IMG/VR virus record: IMGVR_UViG_2526164634_000013
Location: 1 to 9,208 of that record
Length of the DNA: 9,208 nucleotides
Strand: one strand, 5' to 3'
DNA from: a virus
Lineage: Duplodnaviria; Heunggongvirae; Uroviricota; Caudoviricetes
In this document: piece after piece, positions 3,540 through 8,836 of the stretch
Layout: the number at the start of each line of letters is the position of its first letter
Position numbering within the stretch: the first letter of the stretch is position 1
The notes under the pieces: model-generated
Told to the model about the DNA's origin: nothing
Databases searched by the model: none
Seen by the model: the letters and a program-made list of their open reading frames with translations, nothing else
Position numbers and translations under genes: made by a program

Positions 3540-3899
3540 ATGCTCATAGATTTGGTTTTACCTTACCCGCCGACGGTGAACACTTACTGGCGACGCCGTG
3601 GCAGCACATATTTTATCTCGGAGGAGGGAAAGCGTTATCGCCGTGATGTGGCGCTTATTGTTCGCCAGCAGCAACTGAAATTAAACCTGTCCGGAAGGCC
3701 GGCAATAGAAATTATTGCAGAGCCACCGGATAAGCGCCGTCGTGACCTGGACAATATCCTGAAGGCACCACTGGATGTACTGACGCATGCGGGGCTGCTC
3801 ATAGACGACGAGCAGTTTGATGAAATTAATATTGTGCGCGGTCAGCTTGTTCCTGGTGGGCGGTTGGGGATAAAAATCACAGAACTGGAGTATGCATGA
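3540..3899 (+). CDS. rusA: RusA-family Holliday junction resolvase
   Basis: 119-aa product with PPxxNxYWRRRG…RRRDLDN…DDxQ…GGRL, matching the RusA catalytic acidic-residue pattern. SD AGAGG upstream. The stop overlaps the next start (ATGA at 3896-3899). Confidence 0.88.
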   Translation: MLIDLVLPYPPTVNTYWRRRGSTYFISEEGKRYRRDVALIVRQQQLKLNLSGRPAIEIIAEPPDKRRRDLDNILKAPLDVLTHAGLLIDDEQFDEINIVRGQLVPGGRLGIKITELEYA

Positions 3900-4585
3900 A
3901 TAACCAGTATTTACAGTTTGTTCGTGAGCAACTCATGATTGCCACCGCCGATTTGAGTGGATCAACAAAAGGGCAGCTTGAGGCCTGGCAGGAGAATGCC
4001 ATGTTTGATACAGGGCGTTACAGGCGTAAAAAAATCCGGTACCGCGATGAAGTGACTGGAAAAATGATAACGCGGGATAATCCACCAATCCCGGGAAAGC
4101 AATCGCTGGCGAAGGGGGCGTCAATTCCTCTCGTCAGTCCGGTTGAGTTTTTGACATCATCGTGGCGGCGGGCTGTTCTGTCTCTTGAAGAACATCATAA
4201 AGCCTGGTTGTTGTGGTGTTACAGCGGGAGTATTTGTTGGGAATATCAGATCGCGATAACGCAGTGGGTGTGGAATGAATTTAAAACCCGGTACGGCACC
4301 AGAAAAATTGCAGGGAAAACGCAGGAGCGCGCGAAGAAGTTGATCTGGCTGGCGGCACAGGATGTCAGAGGATGGATTACCGGGTGTGAGGTCTACCAGA
4401 GACAGGAGCTTGCCAGACTGTGTGGAGTTAAGCCTGATAACTGGAGCCATAATTATGCGAACTACTGGCGTGAGATGTGCGATATTTTTAAGAGTCTCGA
4501 TAGAGAATCTGTGATTTGCACCGTGAAAATAAGAGCGCAACAAAAAGCGACTTTTTCACGACGAGATATTGCAAAAGTCAATTAA
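3896..4585 (+). CDS. Putative late-gene antiterminator Q (long Q-like family, QuuQ/YdfT-type)
   Basis: 229-aa ORF translationally coupled to rusA, with GGAG 5 nt upstream. It is the last gene before a promoter-like AT-rich stretch and a strong terminator, which is the canonical Q position in lambdoid phages. The family is inferred mainly from synteny; I cannot confirm by motif. Confidence 0.55.
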   Translation: MNNQYLQFVREQLMIATADLSGSTKGQLEAWQENAMFDTGRYRRKKIRYRDEVTGKMITRDNPPIPGKQSLAKGASIPLVSPVEFLTSSWRRAVLSLEEHHKAWLLWCYSGSICWEYQIAITQWVWNEFKTRYGTRKIAGKTQERAKKLIWLAAQDVRGWITGCEVYQRQELARLCGVKPDNWSHNYANYWREMCDIFKSLDRESVICTVKIRAQQKATFSRRDIAKVN

Positions 4586-4644
4586 ATAGCGTACGTTTCG
4601 TATAAATCTGATATTTTGCCGATTTTGTACGCGATGGCAAAGTA

Positions 4645-4675
4645 AGAAAAAAACTGCCGTCAGGCGGTTTTTTTT
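4645..4675 (+). terminator. Strong intrinsic terminator downstream of Q (tR'-like), flanked by A-run and T-run
   Basis: AGAAAAAAA, then stem CTGCC-GTCA-GGCGG (one G-U pair), then TTTTTTTT (4668-4675). It is about 60 nt downstream of a TATAAAT box (4601-4607). Confidence 0.7.
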
Positions 4676-4797
4676 ATGCCCAAAATCGCGTCAGTACAGT
4701 AAACACGCTGGTGGTTGCGAATACGGGTCTTTCAGCTTGCTGGCTTTTTCGACAAGAGTTATTGGTATGTCACGTTAACCGGAAAAAGGAAAAAGAC

Positions 4798-4995
4798 ATG
4801 CTAAAACAGCAGGATATGACAGAAACCGCCAGAGTGGTGTTTAATGAATTAAGCGTTACCGAACCGGCGACAGTCGGGGAGATAGCGCAGAATACTTACC
4901 TTTCACGCGAACGCTGCCAGTTAATACTGACTCAGCTGGTTATGGCGGGTCTGGCAGACTATCAGTTCGGTTGTTACAGACGCCTTCCGCAGTGA
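4798..4995 (+). CDS. Small helix-turn-helix DNA-binding protein (65 aa)
   Basis: ATG at 4798 with AGGA 8-11 nt upstream. The segment ATVGEIAQNTYLSRERCQLILTQLVMAGLA has an HTH-like pattern. The track start at 4711 is an in-frame extension lacking an SD. Confidence 0.55.
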   Translation: MLKQQDMTETARVVFNELSVTEPATVGEIAQNTYLSRERCQLILTQLVMAGLADYQFGCYRRLPQ

Positions 4996-5006
4996 AGGCT
5001 TTTTTA
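4982..5006 (+). terminator. Intrinsic terminator overlapping the stop codon of the HTH gene
   Basis: Stem GCCTTC (4982-4987) / GAAGGC (4994-4999) with loop CGCAGT, followed by TTTTTTATTT. Confidence 0.6.
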
Positions 5007-5023
5007 TTTGTGGTAAATGGGCG

Positions 5024-5052
5024 GCTGGTGGGTGTTAGGGGCACCCACCAGC
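5024..5052 (+). repeat. Perfect 11-bp-stem hairpin (GCTGGTGGGTG / CACCCACCAGC, 7-nt loop) in the methyltransferase leader
   Basis: Exact inverted repeat with no following U-tract. A second 7-bp-stem hairpin lies at 5095-5113 (CTGCTTT-GCGCA-AAAGCAG). Confidence 0.6.
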
Positions 5053-5145
5053 CATCTGCTCATGCGTTGGGTTCACAAGCAAACCTCAGGCCCACTGCTT
5101 TGCGCAAAAGCAGAATGAGCCTATCAGAGACAGGCTTAATGATCC

Positions 5146-6195
5146 ATGCTTAATACTGTAAAAATATCCAGTTGTGAGTTAATCAACGCCGACTGCCTGG
5201 AATTTATCCGGTCGTTACCCGAAAATTCTGTTGACCTGATAGTCACGGACCCGCCGTACTTTAAAGTGAAGCCTGAGGGCTGGGATAACCAGTGGAAGGG
5301 CGACGATGATTACCTGAAATGGCTGGACCAGTGTCTGGCGCAGTTCTGGCGGGTGCTGAAACCTGCCGGAAGTCTTTACCTGTTCTGTGGTCATCGCCTG
5401 GCATCTGATATCGAAATCATGATGCGTGAACGCTTCAGTGTGCTGAACCATATTATCTGGGCGAAGCCGTCCGGACGCTGGAACGGGTGCAACAAGGAAA
5501 GCCTGCGGGCGTATTTCCCCGCCACAGAGCGCATTCTGTTCGCGGAACATTATCAGGGGCCGTATCGCCCGAAAGATGCCGGGTATGAGGCGAAGGGCAG
5601 GGCACTGAAACAGCATGTGATGGCCCCGCTGATTTCTTACTTTCGTGATGCGCGCGCTGCCCTGGGGATAACGGCAAAACAGATAGTGGATGCCACAGGA
5701 AAGAAAAACATGGTGTCACACTGGTTCAGTGCCAGTCAGTGGCAGCTACCGAACGAAAGCGATTATCTGAAATTACAGTCGCTGTTTGCCCGGGTGGCAG
5801 AAGAGAAACATCAGCGGGGAGAACTGGAAAAGTCCCATTACCAACTGGTCAGCACATACAGTGAGCTGAACCGGCAGTATACGGAACTGCAGAGTGAATA
5901 TAAGCATCTGCGGCGGTATTTTGGCGTGACGGCGCAGGTGCCGTACACGGATGTGTGGACGCATAAACCGGTGCAGTACTATCCAGGGAAACATCCGTGC
6001 GAAAAACCGGCAGAAATGCTGCAGCAGATAATCAGCGCAAGTAGTCGTCCTGGTGATCTGGTTGCGGATTTTTTCATGGGGTCGGGTTCAACGGTAAAAG
6101 CGGCGATGGCACTGGGGCGTCGTGCGATTGGCGTTGAACTGGAGACCGGACGTTTTGAGCAGACAGTCAGGGAAGTTCAGGATTTAATCGTTTGA
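5146..6195 (+). CDS. Orphan DNA methyltransferase, beta class (N6-adenine/N4-cytosine family, PF01555-like)
   Basis: 349-aa product with catalytic DPPY (residues 35-38) preceding the AdoMet-binding motif HPCEKP…GDLVADFFMGSGST (residues 283-316). That motif order defines the beta class, and DPPY rather than SPPY favours N6-adenine. No obvious SD before the ATG. No restriction endonuclease ORF in the window. Confidence 0.88.
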   Translation: MLNTVKISSCELINADCLEFIRSLPENSVDLIVTDPPYFKVKPEGWDNQWKGDDDYLKWLDQCLAQFWRVLKPAGSLYLFCGHRLASDIEIMMRERFSVLNHIIWAKPSGRWNGCNKESLRAYFPATERILFAEHYQGPYRPKDAGYEAKGRALKQHVMAPLISYFRDARAALGITAKQIVDATGKKNMVSHWFSASQWQLPNESDYLKLQSLFARVAEEKHQRGELEKSHYQLVSTYSELNRQYTELQSEYKHLRRYFGVTAQVPYTDVWTHKPVQYYPGKHPCEKPAEMLQQIISASSRPGDLVADFFMGSGSTVKAAMALGRRAIGVELETGRFEQTVREVQDLIV

Positions 6196-6244: not shown

Positions 6245-6320
6245 GGCCCTTTAGCTCAGTGGTGAGAGCGAGCGACTCATAATCGCCAGGTCGCTGGTTC
6301 AAATCCAGCAAGGGCCACCA
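6245..6320 (+). tRNA. ileZ: tRNA-Ile2 (anticodon CAU, lysidine type), ileZ-like
   Basis: Hand-folded cloverleaf: acceptor GGCCCTT/AAGGGCC, D-stem GCTC/GAGC, anticodon loop CTCATAA, T-loop TTCAAAT, encoded CCA. Closely resembles E. coli tRNA-Ile2 as recalled. Confidence 0.8.
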
Positions 6321-6327
6321 TCACATA

Positions 6328-6404
6328 CCGCCATTAGCTCATCAGGAAAGAGCGCCAGCCTTCGAAGCTGGCTGCGCGGAGTTCGGGTCCCCGAAGGCGG
6401 TCCA
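6328..6404 (+). tRNA. argN: tRNA-Arg (anticodon UCG as read from sequence), argN-like; atypical stems
   Basis: Perfect anticodon stem CCAGC/GCTGG with loop CTTCGAA, D-stem GCTC/GAGC, encoded CCA. However there is one A-A mismatch in the acceptor stem, one A-C mismatch in the T-stem, and the T-loop is TTCGGGT (G at position 58). Confidence 0.55.
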
Positions 6405-6417
6405 TTATCTGTATCCT

Positions 6418-6494
6418 GCGTTGTTAGCTCAGCCGGACAGAGCAATTGCCTTCTAAGTAATCGGTCACTGGTTCGAATCCAGTACAACGCGCCA
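6418..6494 (+). tRNA. argO: tRNA-Arg (anticodon UCU), argO-like
   Basis: Acceptor GCGTTGT/ACAACGC, D-stem GCTC/GAGC, anticodon stem ATTGC/GTAAT with loop CTTCTAA, T-arm ACTGG-TTCGAAT-CCAGT, encoded CCA. Confidence 0.82.
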
Positions 6495-6508
6495 CACTTA
6501 TTTTCCCT

Positions 6509-6533
6509 GGCTCGCTTTTGCGGGCCTTTTTTT
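6509..6533 (+). terminator. Intrinsic terminator immediately after the tRNA cluster
   Basis: Stem GGCTCGC / GCGGGCC (one U-G pair) with loop TTTT, followed by TTTTTTT. Confidence 0.7.
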
Positions 6534-6730
6534 AAATGTCTCACAATTCAGACGGTTGACAGTTGTCTGTTTTGCGGGGAGTTTGTTAAAAGAAACTGGC
6601 ATGGTGAATCCCCCTGTGCGGAGGGGCAATCAGCGAGTAGGTATATGGGATAATCGCGGATTCAGGTGCTGGTACTGAATTCACCGGGAGGCACCCGGCA
6701 CCATGCAATGGCACATAGCGCCACTCTCCA

Positions 6731-6755
6731 GCCCCTCTCCGGAGGGGCTTTCTTA
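6731..6755 (+). terminator. GC-rich hairpin with T-rich tail (terminator-like) in the tRNA-to-esterase interval
   Basis: Stem GCCCCTC / GAGGGGC with loop TCCG, followed by TTTCTTA. Shares the core CGGAGGGGC with a second hairpin at 6611-6626. Confidence 0.4.
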
Positions 6756-6760
6756 TGGAC

Positions 6761-6788
6761 AAAAAAATCCCGCGCTGGGAGACGCGGG
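6761..6788 (-). terminator. Minus-strand intrinsic terminator-like element (hairpin CCCGCG/CGCGGG followed on the minus strand by U7)
   Basis: On the + strand this reads AAAAAAAT, then CCCGCG, an 8-nt loop, then CGCGGG. On the minus strand that is hairpin plus T-run. It sits back-to-back with the + strand hairpin at 6731-6755. Confidence 0.35.
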
Positions 6789-6982
6789 CGGCAAGGAATA
6801 AACATCAAAACGTGAAGTAATATTTCAGCTGGCGAATAATATCCGACAGTAATCACTCTGCGCAATAGCGCGGCCTTTTTCGTATTGCGGACTGTTGTCT
6901 CTCTTCTGCCATTGTCCTGTAACTTCCGGACTTCAGCCCGCTCCTCATTTTACTCACAATATTATCCCGGCCGGGAGGATTC

Positions 6983-8836
6983 ATGGCATTTAAACACTAT
7001 GATGTTGTCAGGGCGGCGTCGCCGTCAGACCTTGCGGAAAAGCTGACACATAAACTGAAAGAGGGCTGGCAGCCGTTTGGTAGTCCGGTGGCCATAACCC
7101 CTTATACCCTGATGCAGGCGATTGCAGCAGAAGGTGATGTGGTCGTCAGTGGTGCAACTGAGCCGGAGTGGTACTACGTCATCGTACTGGCCGGGCAGTC
7201 CAATGCCATGGCTTACGGTGAAGGGCTTCCGCTTCCGGATTCATACGATGCGCCGGATCCGCGCATTAAACAGCTGGCGCGCCGCAGTACAGTGACGCCG
7301 GGTGGGGCTGCCTGCAGATATAACGATATTATTCCGGCCGACCACTGCCTGCATGATGTGCAGGATATGAGTACGCTGAATCATCCGAAGGCAGACCTGA
7401 GCAAAGGGCAGTACGGCTGTGTCGGCCAGGGCTTACATATTGCCAAAAAACTGCTTCCGTATATCCCGAATAACGCGGGGATCCTGCTGGTACCATGCTG
7501 TCGTGGTGGTTCGGCATTCACCCAGGGCGCGGAGGGGACATTCAGTGCGGACACGGGGGCCAGCCAGGATTCGGCACGCTGGGGTGTGGGTAAACCGTTA
7601 TATCAGGACCTGATTGCGCGCACTAAAGCTGCATTACAGAAGAACCCGAAAAATGTGTTGCTGGCGGTGTGCTGGATGCAGGGAGAGTTTGACATGAGCG
7701 CCGCCACCTACGCACAGCAACCTGCGCTGTTTACAGCCATGCTGAAGCAGTTTCGTGCTGACCTCACTGTGTTTAACGCGCAGTGTCATGGTGGCAGTGC
7801 TGCAGATGTGCCGTGGATTTGTGGTGACACGACGTATTACTGGAAAAATACATACGCTACCCAGTACGACACCGTGTACGGCGGGTATAAAAACAGGGAG
7901 AGTGAGGGCGTTTATTTTGTGCCCTTCATGACAGACGGTAACGGCGTCAATACCGCCACTAACGCACCGGCAGAAGATCCGGATATTCCGGCATCAGGAT
8001 ATTACGGTGCGGCATCGAGAACGAATGGAAACCAGGTATCATCAAACCGCCCGACACATTTCAGTTCATGGGCGCGCAGGAGCATTATTCCGGATCGTAT
8101 GGCAACCGCTATTCTGAACGCAGCCGGGCGCACCTCAGCCTTCATCAGTGGTAAGGCACCGGAAATCAAACCCTCGCCCGGCGTCGACACGCCATCGGGG
8201 CCGTCTGAAGATGCATCCGTACGCACAATCTCCCTGTTGCCGACAGCCGGAGAGGCTGCTGCGCAGGGCTGGACCATTAAGGACGGCGGAATTCAGTTGT
8301 CGGGTGGTGTATTTAAGATCGCCAAGCAGAGCAATAAAGCCTGGTCCCTGACGCGCCCGGTGGGTGACGCAGTCTCCCTGCTGACACGGGGTGGCAGACT
8401 GAGCTGTAAGTTTCGACTGTCAGGCGCACTGACCAACAACCAGTTCGGTCTGGGAATTTATCTGTATACCGATGTAGCGTTACCTGACGTCGTGGCGATG
8501 ACCGGGACTGGTAACCCGTTCCTGATGTCGTTCTTCACCCAGACCACAGACGGCAAACTGAATCTGATGCATCACAAGAAAGCAGGAAACACAAAGTTGG
8601 GCGAGTTCGGGAATTACAGTAACGACTGGCAGACGCTGGAGCTGGTGTTCACCGCCGGCCAGTGCCACGGTTACTCCGAAACTGAATGGAGTGGCTGGCC
8701 CGGCATTCCAGGTCATAAAGACAGTCTGACAGTGGGACTAAATGCACTGACGCTGACGGATATTACCAAAAATGCAACGTATGGCGTTGAGATAGAAAGT
8801 CTGGTGCTGGAGATAAATGCACCGGCATCATCATAA
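6983..8836 (+). CDS. nanS-p: Prophage sialate O-acetylesterase NanS-p-like (SGNH/SASA hydrolase with N-terminal DUF1737-like region)
   Basis: 617-aa product. The motif [16 protein letters not shown] carries the GQSN catalytic-serine signature of SASA-type esterases (NanS/YjhS family). The N-terminal [21 protein letters not shown]… resembles the short domain that heads prophage NanS-p proteins. GGGAGG SD at 6973-6978. Confidence 0.8.

Follow-up and report, generated by a model that had tools for sequence, protein, structure and literature searches.

The 9,208-nucleotide stretch of DNA that was analyzed (hereafter the window) carries the Q-to-lysis segment known from Stx-like lambdoid phages. 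All features described here lie on its + strand. Pfam, Rfam, and ARAGORN searches place a DUF551 protein, sok/hok (1709-2034), a DUF968 protein, RusA, and the late-gene antiterminator Q (3896-4585; Pfam Phage_antiter_Q, E = 8.6e-83) upstream of a DNA methyltransferase (MTase) gene at 5146-6195. The MTase is followed in turn by three tRNA genes, a match to the STnc100 sRNA (6570-6760), an esterase, and a P21-type holin. The tRNA genes (6245-6494), with anticodons CAU, UCG, and UCU, were recovered by ARAGORN and Rfam and are named tRNA-Ile, tRNA-Arg, and tRNA-Arg in RefSeq; situated directly 3′ of the MTase, they form the ileZ-argN-argO-type cluster of Stx-like phages. The esterase (6983-8836) is NanS-p-like, with DUF1737, SASA, and DUF6645 domains by Pfam, and the interval separating it from the tRNA genes (6495-6982) holds no open reading frame (ORF) of sufficient length to be stx, according to the ORF list of the window. 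No nuclease gene adjoins the MTase among its RefSeq and Pfam neighbors. An earlier description of this DNA, made from the letters alone (the sequence-only reading), had called the enzyme an orphan in a late operon; the first term holds, as no restriction or nuclease gene is adjacent, and the second is right by position, since the gene is found among the late genes of a lambdoid prophage.

The interval between Q and the MTase contains a strong intrinsic terminator about 65 nt past Q (4650-4677), composed of an A-tract, a GC hairpin, and a U-tract, which is a candidate tR′. Its predicted RNA fold has a stability of -18.4 kcal/mol (z = -5.55), and 0 of 200 shuffled sequences were equally stable. 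A weaker terminator-like hairpin followed by a T-run occupies 4982-5005, in the gap between a small ORF and the MTase, although its fold is not significant (z = -1.49). The small ORF (4798-4995) encodes 65 amino acids, belongs to phrog_331, and is conserved together with the MTase, upstream of which it also sits in Stx phages. The RefSeq record of phiP27 names this ORF a TrmB-family regulator. A role as a C-protein-like controller of the MTase was considered and set aside, being backed by one RefSeq label and a phrog_331 entry that reads ‘unknown function’. A simple consensus scan found no + strand sigma-70 promoter between Q and the MTase, and pR′ was not located.

The MTase ORF begins with ATG and encodes a 349-residue product. 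The boundaries given for it by the sequence-only reading are confirmed by RefSeq, which has the same ones under the label ‘DNA-methyltransferase’ in a chromosomal copy 99.9% identical to the window gene. Pfam N6_N4_Mtase (PF01555) covers residues 29-340 (E = 7.8e-45; score 153.9 bits, cut-off 26.7 bits), and none of the NCBIfam models matched the protein at its own cut-off. Catalytic motif IV, DPPY, is found at residues 35-38 (5248-5259) and the AdoMet-binding motif I, FFMGSGST, at residues 309-316 (6070-6093). Among 114 homologues, D35, P37, and G312 are invariant and P36, Y38, D308, and F310 are more than 90% conserved. [quoted passage not shown]

Alignment of the MTase by BLASTP with M.EcoGII, which is also 349 residues long, gave 335 identities over 350 positions. 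The M.EcoGII reference was taken from Suppl. Table S1 of PMC11551740, a machine-read PDF with reading errors, and three of the mismatches are evidently such errors: NHHIWAK, an extra R in GRRRAIG, and WTKVPQ for WTHKPVQ. I103 is invariant among homologues, which marks NHHIWAK as an error of the reference. About ten real substitutions remain, for an identity of about 96-97%. From the window to M.EcoGII these are S164A, V181A, S191P, S230P, Y232H, Q244K, T246M, Q249L, H254N, and A263V, so that about six fall within residues 230-263, and the near-invariant Pro230-His-His of the family reads Ser-His-Tyr in the window MTase. The best phage match of the gene is in phage 1720a-02, which aligns with 99% of its length at 94.8% nucleotide identity. 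The family is abundant: of the 5426 complete E. coli genomes searched, 1978 (~36%) have a match, with up to six copies per genome, and the protein database held 2917 matches to the window MTase at E ≤ 1e-5. Among the best 120 of these 2917, identities range from 73 to 97%, all matches with a named source come from Enterobacterales, and most are labeled merely ‘site-specific DNA-methyltransferase’.

M.EcoGII is a prophage enzyme of E. coli O104:H4, and phage 1720a-02 was noted by its describers to encode an MTase that is ‘very similar’ (PMC5778455). It methylates adenine whatever the context, modifying up to 99% of dA in vitro, where its substrates include RNA and DNA:RNA hybrids as well as DNA in double- or single-stranded form; it is unexpressed in the lysogen, and its expression from a plasmid slows growth (PMC5778455). 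M.EcoGI, identical to M.EcoGII at 333 of 349 residues, is likewise non-specific, and a 99% identical copy of M.EcoGI in prophage Phi4 of ST131 strain EC958 was found by RT-PCR to be untranscribed during laboratory growth (PMC4659465). Two homologues in O111 STEC, at 92-93% similarity, were called ‘nonspecific’ on the basis of REBASE and left no signature in lysogen methylomes (PMC6602927). Reconstructed ancestors on the M.EcoGII lineage also remain non-specific (PMC11551740), and these are far more divergent from M.EcoGII than is the window ORF.

Taken with an identity of ~97%, this literature makes the ‘unknown specificity’ attributed to the enzyme by the sequence-only reading untenable. The window ORF is in all likelihood an M.EcoGII-type solitary, beta-class, S-adenosylmethionine-dependent N6-adenine MTase with no sequence specificity, carried by an stx-less lambdoid prophage of E. 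coli, and it very probably has the non-specific m6A activity of its ~97% identical relative. Its annotation should be corrected to an M.EcoGII-type non-specific adenine methyltransferase. Because such MTases are silent in lysogens (PMC5778455, PMC4659465, PMC6602927), the comparison of lysogen and cured-strain methylomes that had been suggested for finding its motif would probably show nothing.

Two other readings of the enzyme bear on this assignment. It could be a sequence-specific orphan MTase whose motif is yet to be found, the few substitutions relative to M.EcoGII having given it specificity. These ~10 differences do lie chiefly in the TRD and linker, and M.PflMI (CCANNNNNTGG), the nearest site-specific relative, has the same overall predicted fold, with a Rossmann core and helix-turn-helix TRD that resemble those of M.EcoGII (PMC11551740). 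M.PflMI, however, is just ~27% identical to M.EcoGII (PMC11551740), as against ~97% for the window ORF, and it is without the charged linker that holds the heptad helix described below, a linker that the window MTase has. As M.EcoGI and the more divergent reconstructed ancestors are all non-specific as well, we consider acquired specificity highly improbable. We give even less credence to the idea that the gene has lost its activity and merely persists in a degenerating cryptic prophage. M.EcoGII itself was described on a cryptic prophage and is unexpressed there, and truncated or internally deleted copies of the family, such as P0015 and P0018, are present in databases; the window copy, however, retains its full length and every catalytic and family-invariant residue, its adjoining late genes are intact, and M.EcoGII, of the same length, is highly active once expressed.

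An AlphaFold2 model of the window MTase was calculated from 114 diverse homologues (mean pLDDT 89, pTM 0.79), and an earlier run on 31 close homologues (mean pLDDT 64) was discarded. Between the Rossmann halves the model contains helices at residues 147-173, 177-184, 187-194, 204-223, and 233-253, and its pLDDT falls to 60-81 in residues 141-160 and 231-260. These helices agree with the domain plan published for M.EcoGII from AlphaFold, in which residues 1-134 and 260-349 make up the Rossmann domain and residues 160-237 a TRD that is a four-helix bundle with a helix-turn-helix (PMC11551740). With the limits of that study, the TRD of the window MTase spans residues ~160-237 (5623-5856) and is a predicted helical bundle with a helix-turn-helix. 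Foldseek retrieved beta-class MTase cores alone (CcrM, M.BceJIV, M.MboIIA, and M.RsrI; TMq ~0.5, E of 1e-15 to 1e-18), and sequence matches in the PDB span residues ~8-142 and 269-343 only. No experimental structure of M.EcoGII was present among the PDB sequence and Foldseek matches. The enzyme would thus consist of a split Rossmann core (~1-134 and 260-349) into which a helix-turn-helix helical bundle is inserted.

Residues 200-260 had drawn attention in the sequence-only reading as a charged, heptad-like helical segment and predicted coiled coil; the quoted peptide, DYLKLQ...HLRRYF, was placed correctly and corresponds to residues 206-259 (5761-5922). The segment is indeed helical, but AlphaFold2 divides it into two helices, 204-223 (5755-5814), which is the first half of the claimed coiled coil, and 233-253, with a break at 224-232. 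A heptad pattern is significant in the second half: residues 231-258 (5836-5919) comprise four degenerate Y-x-x-L-x-x-x heptads, with H231, Y238, Y245, and Y252 at position a and L234, L241, L248, and L255 at position d, and their heptad score of 0.88 was equaled in 27 of 5000 composition-preserving shuffles. In residues 205-228 the pattern is not significant, as 2026 of 5000 shuffles score as well. Helix 204-223 is the last helix of the TRD. A conserved LRRYF motif (residues 255-259; 5908-5922) closes the heptad helix. The segment is charged as claimed, although the enrichment is mild (18 of 61 residues in 200-260, or 30%, compared to 24% in the whole MTase). At the DNA level, no 21-bp tandem repeat underlies the heptads in the window; two short, chance-level repeats occur elsewhere in the gene.

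The further suggestion that this segment is an unusual insertion did not survive alignment. Residues 200-260 are ungapped in all 30 enterobacterial homologues (73-93% identity), the heptad core recurs in distant homologues, and the region has been described for M.EcoGII, as the last TRD helix followed by a ‘highly charged linker, partly a two-helix structure’ (PMC11551740, 2024, AlphaFold2). Rather than a lineage-specific insertion, it is a standard, length-variable part of the family. Solved beta-class structures have no such segment. In the 31 sequences of the enterobacterial set L234, L241, Y245, L248, L255, R256, R257, and F259 are invariant; across the 114 homologues (32-93% identity) R257 is invariant and R256 and F259 are more than 90% conserved. 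The C-terminal extension of helix 204-223 (~216-229, AEEKHQRGELEK-P) is specific to the enterobacterial clade; at this position a short Gly-rich turn or different insertions are seen in distant homologues. Both the enzyme family and the structural element are thus already known.

The heptads were followed further afield in 1.84 billion representative proteins, which were searched exhaustively and gave 36,690 matches at E ≤ 1e-3, of which 308 reached E ≤ 1e-30. Full-length relatives at 32-63% identity formed the distant set, and heptads were counted in 94 of them. At the position of residues 231-258 these distant homologues carry a tandem heptad repeat, consensus (E/D)-Y-E-D-L-R-R, ending in a conserved LRRPF, and the heptad helix of the window MTase is homologous to this repeat. 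Counting contiguous heptads back from LRRPF, 30 sequences have none, and one, two, three, four, five, and six heptads are found in 13, 15, 11, 17, 6, and 2 sequences, respectively; many of the zero counts are degenerate repeats that fail the strict counting rule. Examples include P0153 (HLRREYEDLRRPF), P0141 with four to five copies of YEDLRRE, and P0209 and P0173 with six to seven copies. In the window clade the charges at g and e have decayed, to T, Q, or E at g and V, N, Q, or R at e. The published descriptions of the region that were consulted speak of a ‘charged linker’ alone and mention neither a repeat nor heptads, so its repeat nature and variation in copy number may be a small new descriptive point. 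A tentative possibility is that the (E/D)YEDLRR repeat, which varies from none or one to about six or seven copies across this phage methyltransferase superfamily, acts as a tunable stalk or intersubunit zipper that sets the distance between the helix-turn-helix and the active site. If true, the presence or length of the repeat could contribute to the loss of sequence specificity. The variation in heptad copy number could also guide engineering of, or structural work on, M.EcoGII.

The arrangement that we favor for the heptad helix is an intramolecular antiparallel pair with the outgoing helix at ~147-160, which would form a stalk for the helix-turn-helix domain. The claimed coiled coil would then combine helix 204-223, the last of the bundle, with a helix of four heptads (231-258) that serves as the return arm of the interdomain linker, and this charged two-helix linker would carry the DNA-binding domain. 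In 111 homologues the length of the outgoing linker (135-160) correlates with that of the return segment (Spearman 0.48, p ~1e-7, uncorrected for phylogeny), the median return segment being 31.5 residues where the outgoing linker has at most 10 residues and 49 residues where it has at least 24. With a stricter alignment, comparing the heptad segment alone to the outgoing linker, the correlation is weak (rho = 0.17, p = 0.11, again uncorrected for phylogeny).

An intersubunit, leucine-zipper-like coiled coil, in which residues 231-258 drive or stabilize the obligate beta-class dimer, is the other arrangement to be weighed. Glutamate at g together with arginine at e favors parallel dimeric coiled coils, and the distant consensus E-Y-E-D-L-R-R has exactly these residues at g and e. 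The window enzyme has four contiguous heptads with a conserved a/d pattern that includes the invariant L234, L241, L248, and L255, and the helix has a pLDDT of just 61-81 in the monomer model, as would be expected of a helix lacking its partner. Beta-class MTases are obligate dimers (PMC7544214), and M.EcoGII elutes from a gel-filtration column as a dimer (PMC11551740). In the published AlphaFold2-multimer model of M.EcoGII, however, the subunits meet through residues 97-110 and 116-140, and the linker is described there as an intramolecular two-helix structure (PMC11551740). The decay of the g/e charges in the window clade also speaks against a zipper, and the length correlation (weak though it becomes in the stricter alignment) fits an intramolecular pair. 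We therefore regard the zipper as unlikely.

The most likely function of the enzyme is blanket methylation of progeny phage DNA against host restriction, following Q-dependent late expression. In the lysogen the MTase would be silent, as transcription would have to pass at least one strong intrinsic terminator between Q and the gene. Upon induction, Q would modify RNA polymerase at pR′, the late transcript would pass the terminator or terminators, and the MTase would be produced early in that transcript. It would then methylate adenines all over the replicating phage DNA with sequence ignored, each adenine being flipped out into the DPPY pocket with AdoMet bound at FxGxG, and with the charged linker and the helix-turn-helix bundle, not base-specific contacts, providing the affinity for DNA. 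Genomes packaged in this state would resist the many restriction systems of the next host that are sensitive to m6A. The tight late control is explained by the hypermethylation of host DNA, and the resulting damage, that constitutive expression would cause. Three parts of this scheme are inferred: Q-dependence at this locus, for which the basis is the terminator(s) separating the MTase from Q together with the lack of expression of homologues in lysogens; the gain in resistance to restriction; and the action of the linker as a non-specific nucleic-acid-binding arm. Protection of progeny DNA, also put forward in the sequence-only reading, is the accepted role of the family as inferred by authors and reviewers (PMC5778455, PMC12707154), and no paper was found in the literature on m6A in virion DNA or on a restriction-evasion phenotype for such phages.

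A different target would change this picture. If RNA or host DNA were the main substrate, the enzyme would reprogram host or phage expression during lytic growth and virion DNA would not be protected; the sequence-only reading had raised an effect on host gene expression, and M.EcoGII does methylate single-stranded DNA, DNA:RNA hybrids, and RNA in vitro. Its initial rate is nevertheless ~100-fold lower on RNA (0.12 as compared to 11.12 on DNA; PMC11551740, Suppl. Table S3), genes of this family are silent in lysogens, and late lytic expression would leave little time for reprogramming a host, all of which makes this alternative very unlikely. With protection of virion DNA as the preferred role, the family is likely a broad anti-restriction device of Stx-like phages. 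Its members are widely used as reagents for chromatin footprinting.

The closest known system is M.EcoGII of the E. coli O104:H4 C227-11 prophage (Murray et al. 2018, PMC5778455), which like the window MTase is 349 residues long, prophage-borne, and solitary, with the same beta-class motif order, TRD, and charged linker, and which differs in having Pro and His where the window has Ser230 and Tyr232. M.EcoGI, or M.EcoMV, from prophage Phi4 of ST131 EC958 (PMC4659465) belongs to the same family and is also non-specific and silent in lysogens. The methylases of the Stx phages 1720a-02 and phiP27 and of Stx2a, Stx2c, and Stx2d phages are again members, at 85-95% nucleotide identity, and in Stx phages the MTase module lies between Q and the tRNA cluster as it does in the window. 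In those phages, unlike the window prophage, which has no stx genes, stxAB comes next after the tRNAs (cf. phage 1720a-02). Solved beta-class structures, namely CcrM (6pbd), M.BceJIV (8urk, 9c3u), M.RsrI, M.MboIIA, and M1.HpyAVI, share the Rossmann core and the DPPY and FxGxG motifs and are dimeric, but none carries a helix-turn-helix bundle mounted on a stalk of two helices, and each of these enzymes is site-specific. Functional parallels are found further away. A 2025 review pairs M.EcoGII with Mom of phage Mu, as activities that are silent in the lysogen, toxic if misexpressed, and switched on after induction (PMC12707154). Both Mom and the promiscuous alpha-class adenine MTases (Drozdz et al.) bring about broad modification of phage DNA and combine lysogen silence with toxicity upon misexpression. 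Their architectures are unrelated to that of the window enzyme, the alpha class having a different motif order and Mom being no methyltransferase, and they are thus best viewed as analogues of the M.EcoGII family.

In distant homologues of the methyltransferase (32-63% identity; among the related proteins P0121-P0265 from the protein search), the linker helix is plainly built of heptads repeated in tandem, (E/D)YEDLRR; the equivalent segment of the window lies at 5836-5922. The number of copies ranges in these proteins from none or one to about six or seven, and the repeat ends constantly in a conserved LRRPF motif. R257 of the closing motif is invariant (114 sequences). In the consulted papers on M.EcoGII, the non-specific N6-adenine methyltransferase of an E. 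coli prophage, the linker helix is not presented as a repeat. The two helices are divided in the family by a near-invariant Pro-His-His, which is replaced in the window by Ser-His-Tyr (5833-5841, residues 230-232); despite this substitution, the break at residues 224-232 is retained in the AF2 prediction.

Directly upstream, the methyltransferase gene is adjoined by a 65-aa ORF (4798-4995, + strand) that belongs to phrog_331, a family of unknown function, and has no Pfam or NCBIfam match. The pair is kept in Stx2 phages and phiP27, and one RefSeq record in this set labels the counterpart of the small ORF a TrmB-family transcriptional regulator. The ORF could act as a controller of the methyltransferase. 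A mosaic boundary lies at about 4650-4664: similarity to Stx-phage records begins right at the terminator that follows the antiterminator gene Q (query position 91-105 of 4560-5150), and the closest chromosome copy of the methyltransferase, L001, is accompanied by a different and longer Q gene (822 bp versus 690 bp in the window). Together, these two observations indicate that the module of small ORF plus methyltransferase recombines independently of Q.

Elsewhere in the window, a hok/sok-type type I toxin-antitoxin locus (1709-2034) comprises sok (1709-1884, Rfam) and a Hok/Gef ORF (1822-2034); its counterpart in a related chromosome is hokD. The first tRNA (6245-6320) is called Met (anticodon CAT) by ARAGORN, and the same gene in L001 is annotated as tRNA-Ile by RefSeq, a disagreement that reflects the usual ambiguity for tRNAs of the ileZ type (lysidine-modified CAU) in Stx-like phages. 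A 617-aa DUF1737-SASA-DUF6645 protein (6983-8836), encoded after the tRNAs and before the holin, is a NanS-p-like sialate O-acetylesterase of the kind typical of Stx-like prophages. The interval 6495-6982 contains several terminator-like hairpins, and the sRNA family STnc100 is matched there over its full length (6570-6760, 139 bits). This interval, the site of stxAB in Stx phages, contains no long ORF, and the virus is therefore a stx-less relative of Stx phages.
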